A DNA stretch of 43,851 nucleotides from a virus: the UHGV virus genome UHGV-0172791. One strand, written 5' to 3'. Within the stretch, counting starts at the first letter, position 1, and each line of letters begins with the position of its first letter. The position numbers and the translations under genes were made by a program. The notes under the pieces were generated by a model. That model was not told the DNA's origin. It was given only the letters and a program-made list of their open reading frames with translations, and did not search any database. Below, piece after piece: positions 2,191-33,043 of this stretch.

Positions 2191-4347
2191 ATGGGATTAC
2201 CTAGTCCTAAAAGAAGAAAACCTACTGCTTCGGAAGTTGCAGCATGGGCAAAAAGAATGATTGGCAGAAGAGTTGATGTAGATGGTTATTATGGCGCCCA
2301 GTGTTGAATCTAGCACCTTTGATGAGTAATCATCATAGCAAACTCCTCTAATTCATGGGAACCCTAAACAAGTTATGTTGTAGGCAATCATGAGCGAAGC
2401 CTATAAATAGGAACGTGCAACGACTAGTCGAAAGACGTACACTCAAGCGAGTGGAAACGGGGAGCAACCTAATAGGTTGATGATATAGTCTGAACATTCA
2501 TAGAAATATGAAGAAGGTGACAAGTGGCGATTGTCATCGTAACAAAATTGTGGGATTTACCAAACTACATTTTCAATAGATATTGGCATTTCAAAACAAC
2601 AGGAAATGCGATTGCTATGGCGTGGTATAGATATCCTAAAGGGTTCAAATTCTATAGGAATACTAGAAACTTTGTTCCGAAACCCGGAGATATGGCTGTA
2701 TGGGGTACAGGTTCTTTTAATAACGGTGTCGGACATACTGCTGTTGTAATAGGTCCATCTACAAAAAGTTACTTTACTAGCGTGGATCAAAATTGGATTG
2801 GTGCAAATGGTTATACAGGCTCGCCTGGTGCGAAAATTAAACATAGTTATAACGGTATAAGTGGGTTCGTCAGACCTCCTTATCATGCAGAAACTAAGAA
2901 ACCATCGAAACCAAGTAGTACACCGTCTAAACCCTCTAACGACAACACTCCTAAAAATACAAAAGAACAAACGAAACCTATAACTAAAGAAATTACCAAA
3001 GTTTCCTATACATCATTCGCATACGATTTAGACGATGATTTAGAATACATTTATCATTATATGGTTGAAGGTCAAAAGTTGATAGGGAAAGTAAAAGGTA
3101 TATATATCAAAGAGAGTACACATATGCGTTCTGTTGAAGAATTGTATTTACAACGTAATAAATATGTAAATGAAGATGAATATCCTCATGTATATATAGA
3201 CCGTGAGCGTGTATGGACGCCTAGACCTGATTCAGAAGAAGCACCAGAACATCCAGGTTGGCTTGTTATGGAAGTTTGTGGAGGACAAACAGAAAGCAAA
3301 CGGCAATTCATGCTCAATCAAATCAGAGCGTTAATCTACGGCGTTTGGTTGCTAAGTTGGAGTAAGGTAAAACTATCTGAATCATCAATCAAAGCAGACC
3401 CTAATATATGGCGTTCTATGAAAGATTTAATTAATTACGACTTAATCAAAAACGGTATTCCTGATGAAAGTAAATATAAAGAAGTTGAAAAGAAAATAAT
3501 AGGTTTATATTTAAAAAGAGATAAATTACTCACAGAAACGATTACCACAACAACTACAAAGACAACCATAAAGATTAAACCTAAAACTTCGGTCGATAAC
3601 CCTGAACAGAACGACAAACCGACAGACAAAAAAAGCAAAACAACAAACAGAACTTCGAATAAACCTCGTGTAGTTGTAGAGAAAAGTAAATATACTTTCC
3701 AACAAGCACTGAACGCTCAAATGGCATACGGTAAACCTCAAAAATCTTATAGTTGGGGTTGGGGAAATGCATCTAGGTCTCAAACGAGTAAGTATATGAA
3801 CCCTAACACTATATGGAATAGTTCAGTACAAAGGTATCAAATGTTAGATCTTGGTAAGTATCAAGGTATATCAGTAAGTAAGTTGAATAAGATACTTAAA
3901 GGTAAAGGTACTCTATCCGGACAAGGTAAAGCTTTCGCAGACGGCTGTAAAAAATACAACGTTAATGAAATATATTTAATTGCTCACGCTTTCTTAGAAA
4001 GTGGATATGGACGTAGTAACTACGCAAGTGGACGTTATGGTATATACAACTATTTTGGTATTGCAGCATACGACAATAACCCTAATGCTTCTATAGCATA
4101 CGCCAAACGACAAGGTTGGACGAGTCCACGTAACGGTATTATAGGTGGCGCTAAGTTCGTTAGAAAACAATTCTTTAATCAAGGAAAGAACACTTTATAC
4201 CGAATGCGTTGGAACCCTAAAAACCCAGGTCGCATGCAATATGCTACTGCGATTGAGTGGTGTAATTTCCAAGCAACAACAATAAACAGCTTATACAAAA
4301 AAGTAGGATTAAAAGGTATGTATTATATCAGAGATAAATATAGATAA
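2191..4347 (+). CDS. Tail-associated peptidoglycan hydrolase (CHAP domain + C-terminal glucosaminidase domain), split by an intron: exon 1 2191..2304, exon 2 2551..4347
   Basis: Exon 1 MGLPSPKRRKPTASEVAAWAKRMIGRRVDVDGYYGAQC ends at the CHAP catalytic Cys and is followed by TGA. Exon 2 resumes in frame with WDLPNYIFNRYW...GHTAVV (CHAP His). C-terminus NEIYLIAHAFLESGYGRSNYASG...YRMRWNP is glucosaminidase-like. The intact endolysin in this window has the same motif, YGYQCFDVANQYW. Confidence 0.7.
2305..2550 (+). ncRNA. Putative ORF-less group I intron (246 nt) in the tail hydrolase gene
   Basis: Upstream exon ends in U (..CAGUGU) and can pair with GCAC 8 nt inside the intron, giving P1 with the U.G wobble at the splice site; intron ends in G (..AAAAUUG) before exon 2 UGG; length is a multiple of 3; no ORF inside. 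Confidence 0.5.
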
Positions 4348-5921: not shown

Positions 5922-6200
5922 GTGTTATACATGAAAACAGATGTAGGTTCAATCGTTAGAACAATTGTGTTTATTTTAGCTTGGGTTAACCAATTTTTAG
6001 CTACGAAACATATTTCACCTATTCCGGTAGACGAAGTGACTATCAGTTCTATTATTACTGGTGCAATTTCTTTGTGGACTTGGTGGAAAAACAATAATTT
6101 CTCTCACGCAGCACAAAAAGGACAACAAAAATTGCATGAAGTTAAAGCAGGTACAGACTCAACGGGTGCTGCGCCTAGAATGAATGGAGATGATTTCTAA
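5922..6200 (+). CDS. Holin (dual-start motif MLYMKT)
   Basis: Two predicted TM helices (IVRTIVFILAWVNQFLA; ISSIITGAISLWTWW), charged C-terminus, immediately upstream of endolysin; two in-frame Met codons 3 codons apart (5922 and 5931) each with RBS. Confidence 0.7.
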   Translation: MLYMKTDVGSIVRTIVFILAWVNQFLATKHISPIPVDEVTISSIITGAISLWTWWKNNNFSHAAQKGQQKLHEVKAGTDSTGAAPRMNGDDF

Positions 6201-7603
6201 TGGTATCTGTTAGAACATACAAACAAGCTATAAGTTATCTAAAAAGTTTAGAGGGGAAAGCAGTAAATCCTGATGGTGCTTATGGATATCAATGTTTCGA
6301 TGTAGCCAACCAATATTGGTTATACCTATTCGGTCATACTTTAAAAGGTGTGGGTGCTGCAGACATTCCGACATGGAACAATTTTACAGGAGAAGCTACT
6401 GTTTATGAGAATACATTATCATTCTTAGCTAAGCCTGGAGATGTAGTGATATTCAACAGAAATTATGGCGGGGGGTATGGTCACGTAGGTATCGTTATTT
6501 CTGCCACTTCTAACTCTATAACGATACTTGAGCAAAATTGGGTTGGGGGTGCGTATTGGACACCACCTGAAGTCACTACAAGACGTACACATGGTTATGA
6601 CTTCCCTATGTGGTTTATCAGACCGTTCTACGCTAAAGAAACGACTAAGAACAAAGTTAAAAGCAAAACTAAGCCTGTTAAGAAAGCGAAAGCTAAGAAA
6701 GGTAAGAAAATCTTACTTGTTGCAGGTCATGGAAAAGGTGCTTATTCAAATGATCCTGGTACCGTAGCAAATGGATATAATGAGCGCGACTTTAACAGGA
6801 AAGAGATTATACCTAGAATAAAAAAACAACTCGAAAGTGTAGGAAATACAGTTGTTTTATACGGTGGAAAGTCAATGAATCAAGACTTGTATCAAGACAC
6901 ACTATACGGTCAACGTGTAGGTAACTATTCAGATTATGGTTTATATTGGGTTAAAAAGAATGTGAAACCTGATGTGATTGTAGAATTTCACTTAGACGCT
7001 GCTAGTCCACAAGCTAGTGGTGGTCATGTCATTGTAAGTGACAGGTATCCTGCAGACGATATAGACAAAGCGTTATCTAGCGCTCTAGGTAAGACAGTTG
7101 GTAAAATCAGAGGCGTGACACCTAGAAACGATTTGTTAAACGCTAACGTTACAGGACAACTCAATTTAAATTACAGATTGATTGAGTTAGGTTTTATCAC
7201 TAGTAAAAAAGACATGGACTATATCACTAAGAACATCAACAGTTTTACTAAACGACTTGCAGAGGCTATTAACGGTAGACAAATAAACGCACCAAAAAGC
7301 AAACCATCTAAAGCTAAAACAACGTGGGATTGGGCAGGTAAATTCACTGCTAACAGTACTATTAAAGTACGTAAGTCGCCTGGACTTAAAGGCACTGTAG
7401 TTGAAAGTGGTTCGTGGTTGTACAAAGGAAATTATGTTCCTTTCGACCAAGTAATCAAAAAAGATGGGTATTGGTGGATTAGATTTGAATATGTTCAGCC
7501 AGGCTCAAGTGACAAACATTTCTACTGCGCCGTTTGTAAAATCACAGACAAACAGCAAAAAATAAAAAATGAGAAATATTGGGGTAAAATAGACTGGAAA
7601 TGA
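6200..7603 (+). CDS. Endolysin: CHAP + amidase_3 (N-acetylmuramoyl-L-alanine amidase) + SH3b cell-wall binding domain
   Basis: YGYQCFDVANQYW / GHVGIV (CHAP Cys/His); ILLVAGHGKGAYSNDPGTVANGYNERDFN (amidase_3); C-terminal WDWAGKF...GYWWIRFEY SH3b-like; start overlaps holin stop (ATGA). Confidence 0.9.
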   Translation: MVSVRTYKQAISYLKSLEGKAVNPDGAYGYQCFDVANQYWLYLFGHTLKGVGAADIPTWNNFTGEATVYENTLSFLAKPGDVVIFNRNYGGGYGHVGIVISATSNSITILEQNWVGGAYWTPPEVTTRRTHGYDFPMWFIRPFYAKETTKNKVKSKTKPVKKAKAKKGKKILLVAGHGKGAYSNDPGTVANGYNERDFNRKEIIPRIKKQLESVGNTVVLYGGKSMNQDLYQDTLYGQRVGNYSDYGLYWVKKNVKPDVIVEFHLDAASPQASGGHVIVSDRYPADDIDKALSSALGKTVGKIRGVTPRNDLLNANVTGQLNLNYRLIELGFITSKKDMDYITKNINSFTKRLAEAINGRQINAPKSKPSKAKTTWDWAGKFTANSTIKVRKSPGLKGTVVESGSWLYKGNYVPFDQVIKKDGYWWIRFEYVQPGSSDKHFYCAVCKITDKQQKIKNEKYWGKIDWK

Positions 7604-7631
7604 TATAATTAACTTACCACGTCATTATACA

Positions 7632-7662
7632 AGGGTAGTCACTATGGCTACCCTCTTTTTTT
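7632..7662 (+). terminator. Rho-independent terminator after endolysin
   Basis: AGGGTAG-tcactatgg-CTACCCT perfect 7-bp stem followed by CTTTTTTTT. Confidence 0.6.
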
Positions 7663-7684
7663 ATGCAAAAAACTAAAAAAAGTA

Positions 7685-7713
7685 TAGACAAAAGGACAAT
7701 TGTCCTGTATAAT
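7685..7713 (+). promoter_or_regulatory. Sigma-A-type promoter with embedded perfect palindrome GGACAATTGTCC (candidate operator)
   Basis: TAGACA (7685-7690), 17-nt spacer, TATAAT (7708-7713) preceded by TG; the 12-bp palindrome at 7694-7705 lies in the spacer; RBS AAGGAGGTGA at 7726. Confidence 0.45.
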
Positions 7714-7739
7714 AAGAAGTGTAGTAAGGAGGTGACAAC

Positions 7740-7859
7740 ATGGATAGGTTAGAAAGAGAAGAAAAAAAGACAAATATCGCTAAAGCCAAAAGCGAAACTT
7801 TCCGAAATTATTGCATTGGCATTGCGACACTTGTCTCAGTGATAAAAATATTCTTCTAA
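7740..7859 (+). CDS. Small membrane peptide A (39 aa): charged N-terminus plus C-terminal hydrophobic helix
   Basis: MDRLEREEKKTNIAKAKSETFRNYCIGIATLVSVIKIFF; strong RBS; own promoter; paralogous to peptide at 7911. Confidence 0.4.
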   Translation: MDRLEREEKKTNIAKAKSETFRNYCIGIATLVSVIKIFF

Positions 7860-7864
7860 AATAG

Positions 7865-7896
7865 GGGGGAGGTTATCCCCTCCCTCATATTATATT
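7865..7896 (+). terminator. GC-rich hairpin / probable terminator between the two peptide genes
   Basis: GGGGGAGG-ttatcc-CCTCCCTC 8-bp stem (one G.U) followed by an A/T-rich tract. Confidence 0.4.
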
Positions 7897-7910
7897 ACGA
7901 GGTGATTAAT

Positions 7911-8009
7911 ATGACAAACTTAACTAAAGCAAAGATAAAAATATTTGCAAATTATACAATTGGAATTTTAGCATTAGCATTTGCTTTATATTTAATTATT
8001 TTTAAATAA
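7911..8009 (+). CDS. Small membrane peptide B (32 aa), paralogue of peptide A
   Basis: MTNLTKAKIKIFANYTIGILALAFALYLIIFK; RBS GAGGTGA; shares TN(I/L)xKAK....NYxIGIxxL.......IF pattern with peptide A. Confidence 0.4.
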   Translation: MTNLTKAKIKIFANYTIGILALAFALYLIIFK

Positions 8010-8026
8010 AACAATCTAACCTATCC

Positions 8027-8614
8027 ATGTTTAAGATGGAAATTCAAACAGTGAAGAAACTAATCAATTCAAACATTGACGCAACTACAATTGAGAGAAA
8101 CACAGGTGTTGACGCTTCTTCTATCAGACGTATTAGAAGAGAAGAGAGAACTGTCGAAAAATTATCTTTCGAAAAAGGTATCGCGCTTTTGCATTATCAA
8201 AAGGAGCTAACTAAAATGACTGAATTAAATGATAAAATCGTAGAAGTAGAAAATCCAAATAACATTGTAGAATTTGAAAACTTACAACAATTCTTTTCTG
8301 ATATTGAAGAAATGTCAAATGGTACATTTAAGGTTGATTTTGAAACTTTAGAAAAAGTAGAACATGATAACGGTAGTATATATTATATGGTCACTACGAA
8401 TTCGACCGAAGAAATTGAATTCAATGATAATGTTGACGATGAAAACATTGAAATTCTATATGATCGTTGGTTAGAAAAAGACCAGGGCGAAGAAACACAT
8501 ATCGAAAGTATATTCTTTGAAAATGAGCAAGATGCAAAAGACTATATCAAAGTTGTTTTAAAAGGTTATGACACATTTAAAGAATGTGCTAAAGCAATCG
8601 GCGTAATTGAATAA
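8027..8614 (+). CDS. Hypothetical protein with N-terminal HTH-like segment and very acidic C-terminal domain (195 aa; alternative start at 8216 with strong RBS gives a 133-aa acidic protein)
   Basis: NIDATTIERNTGVDASSIRRIRREER resembles an HTH; C-terminal 130 aa are D/E-rich; AAAAGGAGCTAACTAAAATG internal start context at 8216. Confidence 0.45.
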   Translation: MFKMEIQTVKKLINSNIDATTIERNTGVDASSIRRIRREERTVEKLSFEKGIALLHYQKELTKMTELNDKIVEVENPNNIVEFENLQQFFSDIEEMSNGTFKVDFETLEKVEHDNGSIYYMVTTNSTEEIEFNDNVDDENIEILYDRWLEKDQGEETHIESIFFENEQDAKDYIKVVLKGYDTFKECAKAIGVIE

Positions 8615-8623
8615 ACAAAAAGC

Positions 8624-8652
8624 AACCACGTTCTTATGAGCGTGGTTTTTTT
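8624..8652. terminator. Bidirectional rho-independent terminator between convergent ORF 8027..8614 and int
   Basis: AACCACG-ttcttatgag-CGTGGTT flanked by T-run on + strand and by A-run (T-run on minus strand) upstream. Confidence 0.6.
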
Positions 8653-8698
8653 ACGGAAGTATACACATTAAATATTAATCGAGTGTCTATACTTCCGT
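8653..8698. other. Candidate attP: 46-bp imperfect palindrome with perfect 11-bp inverted arms, abutting the 3' end of the serine integrase gene
   Basis: ACGGAAGTATA-cacattaaatat|taatcgagtgtc-TATACTTCCGT; symmetric about a central AT|TA; not followed by a U-tract on the minus strand so not a plain int terminator. Confidence 0.35.
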
Positions 8699-8705
8699 AC
8701 ATAAG

Positions 8706-10085
8706 TTAATAAAATTCTATATCGTTTATTTTAATAGAATGCCTGTTTTTAAGTTTTACATAATCTATGTCGATAGACTTAATAGCCATCTTAATAAAAT
8801 CTGCTTTATCTTCTAACGAGAATATCTTCCATGATTCCAACAATGCATTCTTGAATTTTTTTATCTTAGCTACATCTAGTGTTTTACTTGGAACTAATTC
8901 TTTTTGTTTTTCATATTCTGCGATTGTTTCGTCTGTTTCTTTAATCAATTCAAATAATTCTTCTTCTTGCATTAACCCTTTAGCATATAATTTATGATAC
9001 CTTTTACGTTGTTCCATAATTTTGTCTATATCAATAGTAACGACATCATCTTTTTGTTTTGTCTTTACCTCGTATTCTTCTAAGTCTAATTTAGATAGGT
9101 AATCGCGAAAAACTCTTAAAGCTTCATTTTCTGCAAAACCGAAACTTTCCTTTTTAACTTTACATGTGTTGCAATAATACGTTTTATAGGTAACATAACC
9201 TTTCTTTCTCTTTCTGGTTGCTGTGTTCATTGTTAATGTACCACCACATTTTGGGCAAATAAATTTACCTCTGAATACTGATACATGACTGACTATTTTA
9301 GTGTTGATTCTTTCTTCTAATCTTTCTTTTATTTGTTGATACATTTCTTCGGTAATAATAGGCTCGTGAGAGTTTTCTATAAATACATCTCCCCAAGTAT
9401 AATGACCTCTTGTAATAGGGCTTCTTAGCGCTCTCGTTATTGTTCTATCTTCCCACCTTTTGCCATTAGGAGGTGGTATATCTGAATCGTTTAATTTTCT
9501 AGCTATAGCTTTTGAACTATTACCTTTCATCACTTCGTCATATGCCCACAAAACTACTTTTTTATAATCATTAGGAATATAAGTGTTATCTACACGATCA
9601 TAATAAAAGGGTGGTGGTGTAAGTATCATGCCTTGTTTAATCGCTGCGCGTTTACCCATCATTACTCGTTCTCTAATCGTTTCACGTTCCCACTCTGCCA
9701 TAGCGCCAACTAATGTAACAAACAGTCTACCCATAGCTGTAGATGTATCATAAACTTCAGTAGCACTTCTGAATGCTACGTTATTCTGTTCAAATATCTC
9801 TAGTAAGTCCAATAAGTCACGTACATTACGTGTAAGCCTATCTAACTTGTACACTAAAACTAAATCAAACCGTTTAATATCGTTCATCATTCGTTGTAAT
9901 TCTGGTCGTTCACGTTTAGCACCAGAGAAACCAGCGTCGATAAATACGTCCGATACACTCCAGTCGTTTATCTCGCAAAATGATTTGAGCTTTCTTTCTT
10001 GTTCTTCAATAGAATAACCGTGCTCTTTTTGTTCTAATGTACTGACCTGACACGAACGTAAATAGCTACGTTCATAATTCATCAC
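8706..10085 (-). CDS. int: Large serine recombinase (phage integrase)
   Basis: N-terminal resolvase-type catalytic domain (..SCQVSTLEQ..DVFIDAGFSGAKRERPELQRM..DLVLVYKLDRLTRNVRDLLDL..), central recombinase domain, zinc ribbon CPKCGG...CNTC, C-terminal coiled coil; 459 aa. Confidence 0.9.
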   Translation of the reverse strand: MMNYERSYLRSCQVSTLEQKEHGYSIEEQERKLKSFCEINDWSVSDVFIDAGFSGAKRERPELQRMMNDIKRFDLVLVYKLDRLTRNVRDLLDLLEIFEQNNVAFRSATEVYDTSTAMGRLFVTLVGAMAEWERETIRERVMMGKRAAIKQGMILTPPPFYYDRVDNTYIPNDYKKVVLWAYDEVMKGNSSKAIARKLNDSDIPPPNGKRWEDRTITRALRSPITRGHYTWGDVFIENSHEPIITEEMYQQIKERLEERINTKIVSHVSVFRGKFICPKCGGTLTMNTATRKRKKGYVTYKTYYCNTCKVKKESFGFAENEALRVFRDYLSKLDLEEYEVKTKQKDDVVTIDIDKIMEQRKRYHKLYAKGLMQEEELFELIKETDETIAEYEKQKELVPSKTLDVAKIKKFKNALLESWKIFSLEDKADFIKMAIKSIDIDYVKLKNRHSIKINDIEFY

Positions 10086-10134
10086 TCCCTAAAAAAAGTA
10101 AAAAATAATAAGGGTAGGCGTGCTACCCATAAAA

Positions 10135-31669: not shown

Positions 31670-33043
31670 GGTTAAATACGGAAATTGGGATTTAGTTAAG
31701 GAACTTGAGGAGTTTGAAAAAGAAACGATTAGATGGGCTAAAAAAGGTATAGCCAAGACAACAACAATTATTCACAATTCAATAGTTAGTAACATGCCCG
31801 TTGATACCGGTTATCTTAGAGAAAGTGTTTCTATGGACTTTAAGAAGGACGGATTAACAGGCGTTATTAATATCGGCAGTGAGTACGCGATAAAACGTAT
31901 GTCGCAATTACTGGTAACAGTAATTTAAAAATCGAGCAAAATCGGTGAAAGTCTTTAAATATAAAGTTGTATGTTAATTACGGTACAGGTATAATGTATA
32001 TGAGGTGATTATATTTGGAACGTAATGATAAAGGGCAATTTGTAAAAGGTATGAACATCAAGGATAAAACGAATGAGAGATTTGGAAGATTAACAGTCAT
32101 TGGAATGTCGGATAAAAAATCTGGCAGAAAAACCTATTGGAATTGTCTGTGTGACTGTGGGAATAAAGTAACTGTGAGAAGTGATTCTTTAGGTACCACT
32201 AAATCATGTGGCTGTTTAAAAAAAGCGAAAGCGCCACTTAATCTAGGAAAAACTAATTTACATGGTTTAACTAAGCATCCATTATACGGAAGATGGAACG
32301 CTATGATAAATAGGTGTGAAAATCCTAACACATTAGCCTATAAAAATTACGGCGAACGTGGTATTAAAGTATGCGACGAATGGCACAATCTGAAAGAGTT
32401 TATTCGTTGGAGCGAAGAAAATGGTTTTAGTGATAAATTAACTTTAGAAAGAATAGATGTTAATGGCAACTATGAACCAAAAAATTGTAAATGGATACCT
32501 ATGGAAGAACAACATTATAATAAACGTACTTCTGTTTATCACACGTATAATGGAGTTACAAAAACTACAATGCAATGGGCTCATGAATTAAATATCCCCT
32601 TGTACAAAGTGTCGAAATATAAGAAAAATAACATACCTTTTGTAGATTTGATTAAAGAGTATAAAGATAACACCGAGGTAACTTAATAGATTGCGAAAGG
32701 CTATTAAGCACTGTAGAGCGTAGGAAGTGAATAAATATAATCTTCCCAAGAGTGTTCGACAACCAATAAAGGTTGTCTTTTTTATTGGTTGAAAATGTAC
32801 GCCGAACTTACAGGTGACTGTAAGAAGTAGAGGATAAAAAGCCTTTACGATAACAAATGATACGTAAACTACGGCACAGGCATATATTCAGTTGGTCCTG
32901 GTGGTAGTCGTGCTAAAAGTATTCCATGGCGTTATAAAGACGCAGACGGACATTGGCACACAACAAAAGGTCAACGTGCACAACCTTTTTGGGAACCTGC
33001 TATTGACGAAGGTAGAGCGTTTTTCAATAAGTATTTTTCATAA
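31662..33043 (+). CDS. HK97 gp10-like head-tail joining protein, split by an intron: exon 1 31662..31891, exon 2 32881..33043
   Basis: Exon 1 ORF runs into a stop after 88 aa. Some 990 nt downstream, a C-terminus with no start codon is read in a different frame: IYSVGPGGSRAKSIPWRYKDADGHWHTTKGQRAQPFWEPAIDEGRAFFNKYFS. Its PFWEPAIDE matches the gp10 family motif pF(l/w)rPA. Spliced product ..IGSEYAIIYSVGPGG.. Confidence 0.6.
31892..32880 (+). ncRNA. Putative group I intron (989 nt) carrying an HNH homing endonuclease ORF
   Basis: Upstream exon ends in U (..GCGAU) and pairs with GUCGC 9 nt into the intron (5-bp P1 with U.G wobble at the splice site); last intron nt is G; length 989 = 2 mod 3, which restores the frame exactly. 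Confidence 0.5.
32015..32686 (+). CDS. Intron-encoded HNH homing endonuclease (zinc-finger + AP2/HNH_3-like)
   Basis: CLCDCGNKV...CGC zinc motif; HPLYGRWNAMINRCENPNTLAYKNYGERGIKVCDEW and LTLERIDVNGNYEPKNCKWI HNH_3/AP2-like; TTG start with RBS GAGGTGA. Confidence 0.7.
   Translation: MERNDKGQFVKGMNIKDKTNERFGRLTVIGMSDKKSGRKTYWNCLCDCGNKVTVRSDSLGTTKSCGCLKKAKAPLNLGKTNLHGLTKHPLYGRWNAMINRCENPNTLAYKNYGERGIKVCDEWHNLKEFIRWSEENGFSDKLTLERIDVNGNYEPKNCKWIPMEEQHYNKRTSVYHTYNGVTKTTMQWAHELNIPLYKVSKYKKNNIPFVDLIKEYKDNTEVT

Follow-up and report, generated by a model that had tools for sequence, protein, structure and literature searches.

The window analysed here is the whole 43,851-nucleotide (nt) stretch of the virus genome UHGV-0172791, which represents a temperate Staphylococcus epidermidis siphovirus of the CNPH82 / PH15 / IPLA7 / 48 / 456 group. 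The gene order at the locus of interest is holin and endolysin (6200–7603), a variable accessory region, a terminator, a palindrome and, on the opposite strand, int, the gene for a large serine recombinase (integrase). The palindrome ends 6 nt from the stop codon of int, whose open reading frame (ORF), stop codon included, ends at 8706 as an earlier note made from the letters of the sequence had stated. That note proposed the palindrome as the phage attachment site (attP) of the integrase. The proposal holds up well: attP, the bacterial site attB and the two hybrid junctions attL and attR are all found in public sequences, and the same attL was obtained by sequencing when sister phages were lysogenised in the laboratory (Fišarová et al., 2021, mSphere; PMC8125051). 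Judged from these sequence comparisons, we put the probability that positions 8652–8699 are the attP of the adjacent integrase at about 95%. The parts of the predicted site and the gene beside it are as follows.

8652–8699, no strand: putative attP of the large serine integrase, a 48-bp imperfect palindrome (12-nt perfect arms, symmetry axis, conservation, attL/attR hybrids)
8652–8663, no strand: outer left arm P, TACGGAAGTATA, a perfect inverted match to the right arm
8672–8679, no strand: 8-bp overlap or common core, ATATTAAT, common to attP and attB
8675–8676, no strand: putative crossover dinucleotide TT (AA on the int and merA strand), on the attP symmetry axis
8680–8682, no strand: variable triplet right of the core, CGA here and AGA, CAA, TGA, CAG or GGA in relatives
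8688–8699, no strand: outer right arm P', TATACTTCCGTA, kept beside int in every attL
8706–10085, minus strand: large serine recombinase (integrase) gene, annotated as a 459-codon ORF (Pfam, PHROGs and structure matches)

Attachment site and lysogen junctions

The 46-bp element 8653–8698 reads ACGGAAGTATA-CACATTAAATAT|TAATCGAGTGTC-TATACTTCCGT, with arms at 8653–8663 and 8688–8698. Its letters are as the earlier note gave them and 17 of its 23 position pairs are symmetric, but the perfect arms are 12 nt each rather than 11, extending one base beyond the element on either side. In an axis scan with a 24-nt half-window the best dyad falls at 8675|8676 (T|T) with 18/24 matches, and the runner-up axis reaches 11. 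The central ATTA is asymmetric and not self-complementary. Elsewhere in the window, only 32760–32791 holds a short-loop perfect inverted repeat of 11 nt (CAACCAATAAA, 10 nt, TTTATTGGTTG).

Junctions were surveyed by DNA-pattern scans, because an integrase scan of genome contigs gave only two staphylococcal loci. Metagenome contigs were scanned with the left part of attB plus the core, and viral contigs with the left part of attP plus the core and with the right arm. The metagenome scan returned 21 staphylococcal matches, of which nine are empty attB sites and 12 are attL. Two of the 23 metagenome matches in all (L025 and L031; marine) were rejected as chance matches to the 20-mer. The forms found are listed below.

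attB (empty), n = 9: ..TTTTAGTNGGTATACATCCG-ATATTAAT-GCATGTACCRCCATACATC..
attB flanks as scanned: ..GGTATACATCCG ATATTAAT GCATGTACC..
attB of merA, about 40–50 bp: TTTTAGTCGGTATACATCCGATATTAATGCATGTACCACCATACATC
attL, 12 in metagenomes and more in viral contigs: left part of attB, core, then (C/A)GAGTGTCTATACTTCCGT and int
attR, n = 2 (L045, L039): left part of attP, core, then GCATGTACCACC
attP, n at least 10 in public contigs: palindrome intact

Thus attP occurs in phage-form contigs, empty attB in S. epidermidis DNA, and attL and attR in lysogens. The search for split half-sites suggested in the earlier note has a clear outcome: attL, reading from the left half of attB through core and right arm into int, is present in 12 metagenome contigs, and attR in L045 and L039. 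Both are hybrids of the palindrome with attB, joined in the 8-bp core. The overlap is exactly 8 bp because the bases of attP and attB differ on each side of ATATTAAT.

Coordinates of related prophages agree. GenBank entry KY653120 (IME1348_01, integrase 97% identical) is deposited in prophage order; it starts ATATTAAT|CGAGTGTCTATACTTCCGT-int, ends ...ACGGAAGTATACACATTAAATATTAAT, and annotates both octamers as attP-L and attP-R. These ends therefore place the junction at window positions 8672–8679. A genome contig with a 95%-identical integrase shows the same attL, the right arm and core being followed by unrelated DNA that encodes an oxidoreductase. This contig (L004, NZ_JBHLXP010000009.1, 79.7 kb) is labelled Rheinheimera tilapiae KCTC 23315, and the prophage lies in a staphylococcal merA. 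Staphylococcus contamination of the assembly of this gammaproteobacterium is the most likely explanation.

All related phages with this integrase carry the element in nearly invariant form, and the DNA to its left is unrelated. The left flanks of the relatives are of at least four unrelated types, each ending in a different hairpin, and in the alignment invariance begins exactly at 8652. This argues that nothing further left is needed for the site, and conservation starting at 8652 fits a functional site whose left edge coincides with the palindrome end. The attP of tyrosine integrases, by contrast, has extended arm-type sites and spans roughly 240 bp. The right boundary is not readable from conservation, because the right side of attP runs into int. 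One attP variant, in contig L056 (IMGVR_UViG_3300013870_000013, approximately 3228–3300), has the usual right half with a different left interior, ACGGAAGTATGCTCAATCAACATTAAT|AGAGTGTC...

The feature is already known, since the 46-bp element is identical in phages PH15 and CNPx and the site of sister phages has been published. S. epidermidis was lysogenised with phages 27, 48, 456, 459 and E72, all five of which integrated in one gene for an FAD-dependent oxidoreductase, and ATATTAAT was called the overlap, with imperfect inverted repeats on both sides (PMC8125051). The phage 48 attL sequenced from the laboratory lysogen is TAGTAGGTATACATCCGATATTAATAGAGTGTCTATACTTCCGT (PMC8125051), which agrees with the attL class found here in contigs. 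Hence attP, attB, overlap and target gene of this integrase lineage are already published, and the core is annotated in KY653120. A text search of the literature for the attP and attB strings returned nothing; the published sites apparently appear in figures only. Phages 27, 48, 456, 459, E72 and IME1348_01 have the same 8-bp overlap and target gene as the phage of the window. Phage 48 differs from the window in a G at core position 1 and in AGA instead of CGA beside the core, and in the S. epidermidis sister phages the accessory-gene region and the terminator left of attP are different. What is added here is that public contigs independently confirm the four att forms, that attB is placed on the codons between the MerA catalytic cysteines, and that more distant integrases preserve the GGAAGT-N30-ACTTCC layout.

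The host target gene merA

The gene that contains attB is merA. Its product matches the NCBIfam family NF041853 'hypothiocyanous acid reductase MerA' with 761.6 bits (cut-off 650) and contains Pyr_redox_2 and Pyr_redox_dim domains. The CxxxxC motif of class I pyridine nucleotide-disulfide oxidoreductases is present (GGTC43-INIG-C48IPTK), and I44-N45-I46, in the stretch from redox cysteine C43 to redox cysteine C48, are encoded by the overlap. An example of the empty site is seen in contig L014, where the gene spans 1640–2971 and attB is at 1769–1776. As the core lies between the codons for Cys43 and Cys48, integration splits the active site of merA. On the merA strand attR encodes GGTCINI and then meets a stop codon contributed by the phage arm. 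In attL, reading back from merA, the frame of this gene meets no stop codon in the phage arm or in the final codons of int, whose frame is a different one, over at least the 43 nt checked. Integration would be expected to inactivate MerA, whose enzymatic function is itself predicted. Lysogeny should then remove an oxidant defence of the skin commensal and pathogen S. epidermidis, MerA now being recognised as a hypothiocyanous acid reductase.

The S. aureus prophage phiST88-1 is also found in merA; reduced oxidant tolerance has been suggested, and loss of defence against hypothiocyanous and hypochlorous acid (HOSCN/HOCl) predicted, for that case (PMC11651095). Both phiST88-1 and the present phage family are thus staphylococcal prophages interrupting merA. 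The MerA cysteines are not mentioned in PMC10715087.

A prophage of S. borealis 51-48 (L005, 4280–4340) encodes a 68%-identical integrase and interrupts a diverged merA-like gene at the position homologous to CxxxxC. Its insertion site reads ..N-H-G-C-I-P-S-K-V.. and its outer arm is ATGGAAGT. This suggests that the integrase lineage tracks the same active-site codons across species.

A further reading takes attP and merA together as a reversible genetic switch ('active lysogeny'), in which regulated excision would precisely rebuild MerA under neutrophil or mucosal oxidants, with regulation possibly through a conserved sigmaH-type region upstream of int. The data cover the gene split and a precise reversibility in principle, without any regulation, and we regard the switch as unlikely. 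In Bacillus subtilis, SPbeta (spsM) and skin (sigK) use a large serine recombinase with attB in a coding sequence, and excision can rebuild the gene. The merA prophage is likened to these elements by gene splitting; the likeness does not cover developmental or stress regulation of excision, nor host use of a rebuilt merA.

Crossover position and alternative readings

Large serine recombinases act as dimers on attP and attB; once bound, the dimers synapse, cleave the centre of each site with a 2-nt stagger, and religate the ends after subunit rotation. By analogy, a dimer of the present integrase would bind the two approximately 24-bp half-sites of attP while a second dimer binds attB in S. epidermidis merA. 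The two complexes would synapse and all four strands would be cut, with a 2-nt stagger, at the central dinucleotide (putatively TT, 8675–8676) within the core ATATTAAT. Subunit rotation and religation would then give attL, consisting of the 3' part of merA, core, right arm and int, and attR, consisting of the lysis/accessory end, left arm, core and the 5' part of merA. The cleavage dinucleotide, the assignment of integrase domains to motifs and the rotation mechanism are all inferred from this analogy.

Polarity of recombination needs a non-palindromic central dinucleotide, and the overlap contains only two, TT (8675–8676) and AA (8677–8678). TT is taken as the crossover because it lies on the attP dyad. 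The core of phage 48 begins with G, whereas the base at this position in its attL is the A of the host. The exchange is therefore to the right of 8672, which limits it to 8673–8679 and is consistent with TT. Attachment at this palindrome with exchange at AA instead is the closest alternative. AA is the only other non-palindromic dinucleotide of the overlap, attB is asymmetric about TT, and the phage 48 variant narrows the crossover only to 8673–8679. Against this, the attP symmetry is sharply centred on 8675|8676, the crossover of characterised serine integrases is at the dyad centre, and a centre at AA would give attP half-sites that differ by 4 bp in length. Exchange at AA is considered improbable.

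Two other explanations concern the palindrome itself. Its main role could be that of an RNA hairpin which stabilises the 3' end of the int transcript or forms part of the terminator, the nearness to the integration site being coincidental. The position suits such a role, immediately ahead of the terminator hairpin and just past the int stop codon. As RNA, attP forms a 12-bp stem plus further inner pairs on both strands, and the 113-nt region gives folding z-scores of −5.1 and −6.4. However, AAAAAAA (A7) comes after the palindrome on the int strand and, as the earlier note had observed, there is no U-tract. An Rfam search of the element yielded no match other than a sub-threshold chance hit to MicC (27.5 bits, with the gathering score at 90). 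Conservation of the arms in attL and attR is that of DNA half-sites. Moreover, integration cuts the palindrome exactly at its centre, and the prophage, which needs int to excise, therefore has no such hairpin. A hairpin function as the main one is very unlikely. The last explanation puts the true attP elsewhere in the interval between lysin and int, for example within 7610–8030, the palindrome then being an operator or other protein-binding site. The interval does hold further inverted repeats and terminator-like hairpins. Yet all observed junctions are at 8672–8679, the palindrome centre, with none in 7610–8030, and most relatives using this attB lack the region 7550–8620 or have other DNA in its place. 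Location of attP within 7610–8030 is refuted by these data, and the explanation in general is given almost no weight.

Several points do weigh against identification of the palindrome as attP, or against details of it. The palindrome by itself is within chance expectation: a window of equal size and composition should hold 0.55 perfect 11-nt inverted repeats with a loop of up to 30 nt, and at least one occurs in 36% of Markov-1 simulations. The case for attP rests on position, conservation and lysogen junctions because the palindrome alone is not statistically compelling. The junctions come from contigs of relatives and from lysogens of sister phages. The exact cleavage point is not readable from sequence, 8 bp being common to both sites. 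The dyad symmetry of attB about TT is low, with 6/26 matches between the halves; attB gave no independent check of the crossover because it has no convincing dyad symmetry. Finally, a frame-disrupting 5-nt duplication near the 5' end of int, described below, clouds how active integrase arises, yet 15 integrated prophages share this allele.

Integrase gene and neighbouring features

The int product matches the Pfam families Resolvase (PF00239, 4.5e-41) and Recombinase (PF07508, 1.4e-21), and the zinc ribbon family PF13408 (Zn_ribbon_recom) with 23 bits, slightly below the cut-off of 25.3. It is assigned to phrog_95 integrase (8.5e-142) and shares 97% identity with its counterparts in IME1348_01 and phage 48. 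Like the int product, the integrase of lactococcal phage TP901-1 belongs to the small members (<500 amino acids, aa) of the large serine recombinases; it comes from a Firmicutes siphovirus whose attP is short. Among solved structures, the TP901-1 catalytic domain is closest to that of the int product (3BVP, E = 2.6e-35), while its att sites and host target are different.

The Listeria phage A118 integrates into comK, with attB inside the gene, which is split. In the model for the LI/A118 integrase the zinc-ribbon-domain motif is about 5 bp nearer the centre in attB than in attP. The C-terminal part of the int product (residues 138–441) matches the A118 integrase (PDB 4KIS, E = 2.3e-08), with the same architecture of recombinase, zinc-ribbon and coiled-coil domains. 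The similarity is remote, and att sequences and target are different. By analogy with 4KIS, the outer left arm is a putative binding motif of the zinc-ribbon domain. When the attP outer half-sites are compared with the right half of attB at a 5-nt inward shift, 14/21 and 13/21 positions match. With the left half of attB there are 8/21 matches at shift 5, and shifts 0 and 2 score better. Since it is not clear in the left half of attB, the 5-bp offset is taken as a lead only.

Among the S. aureus phage integrases found, those of HSA84 and L-m44 come closest, with 51% identity and a different attP interior. In HSA84 (L068, 2566–2611) a 46-bp palindrome, TTGGAAGT-N30-ACTTCCAA, directly follows the int stop codon. 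It has the size and the outer GGAAGT motif of the window's attP and a different interior, and therefore its attB is presumably different as well. GGAAGT is found at the same outer attP position in HSA84, StB12/StB27 and the S. borealis prophage L005. More distant integrases keep a GGAAGT-N30-ACTTCC geometry. The att pair described here could serve as a compact recombination tool.

Two further features of the locus are as follows.

10042–10051, minus strand: 5-nt tandem duplication GTCAG|GTCAG (GTCAGGTCAG) at the catalytic Ser codon of int, with copies at 10051–10047 and 10046–10042
8624–8652, plus strand: intrinsic terminator of the accessory gene 8027–8614, abutting attP (a hairpin; relatives have different hairpins at the same place)

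At the duplication the int strand of the window reads AGGGAGTGATGAATTATGAACGTAGCTATTTACGTTCGTGTCAG|GTCAG|TACATTAGAACAA. The canonical start is the ATG at 10075–10073, 9 nt after GGAG and homologous to the int start of StB12, StB27 and HSA84. Its frame gives MNVAIYVRV-RSVH (MNVAIYVRVRSVH) and then stops at TAG 10036–10034. The annotated 459-codon ORF begins with an ATG or GTG only 0–2 nt past the Shine-Dalgarno (SD) sequence and has the N-terminus MNYERSYLRSCQ-VSTLEQ (MNYERSYLRSCQVST). This N-terminus is without the usual beta-1 strand (VAIY), and Q replaces the conserved Arg of YxRVS. Removal of one GTCAG copy restores the canonical MNVAIYVRVSTLEQ, as found in StB20, L044, L056 and L088. L056, whose attP variant was mentioned above, thus has that variant linked to the one-copy (canonical) allele.

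In IMG/VR contigs the two-copy allele is found 37 times and the one-copy allele three times; overall, there are four one-copy loci and at least 50 two-copy loci. The two-copy allele is present in 15 integrated prophages, in nine phage-form loci and in phage 48, which lysogenises in the laboratory (PMC8125051). The duplication is not mentioned in that paper. Approximately 60 nt around the duplication are almost invariant, whereas synonymous sites downstream vary. AGG, which follows the first GTC, is an uncommon codon (3.6 per 1000 vs 17.9 for AGA). Possible explanations are activity of the odd N-terminus, which would then be unusually tolerant, and recoding, either by a +5 ribosome hop between the two GUC codons across the rare AGG or in another form.

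Upstream of int, positions 10086–10134 (minus strand) contain a hairpin, GGGTAGCACGCCTACCC, a T-rich stretch and the SD sequence, and are part of a conserved int-upstream region of staphylococcal prophages. A sigmaH-dependent promoter is reported for this region in a paper that names CNPH82 and PH15 (PMC2869324). A second hairpin, GAACGTA-GCTATT-TACGTTC, overlaps the canonical int start.

On the other side of attP, the earlier note had called the neighbouring structure a bona fide bidirectional terminator. On the plus strand this is a fair description, as the hairpin 8624–8647 has a 10-bp stem followed by a T-run and is terminator-like. The minus strand is weaker: the same stem has one C-A mismatch, although it still folds, and is followed by UUGCUUUUUG. 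Termination in both directions is thus plausible but supported only in part.

The relatives of the phage are classed as Rockefellervirus in GenBank. The best coverage of the first 25 kb of the window by a deposited phage is at most about 50%, at approximately 92% identity. This makes the phage a new mosaic, although with a known att/int module. The endolysin encoded left of the accessory region carries CHAP, Amidase_3 and SH3b domains. The accessory region itself contains two small ORFs and a 195-aa ORF matching phrog_1529, a family of unknown function. The small ORFs (7740–7859 and 7911–8009, plus strand; 39 and 32 aa) are situated between the endolysin gene and attP and gave no family match in a PHROGs search. 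Each is followed by a terminator-like hairpin, and the product of the second is hydrophobic. About 400 bp of the accessory region is shared with the S. aureus phage StauST398-3, with 82% identity.

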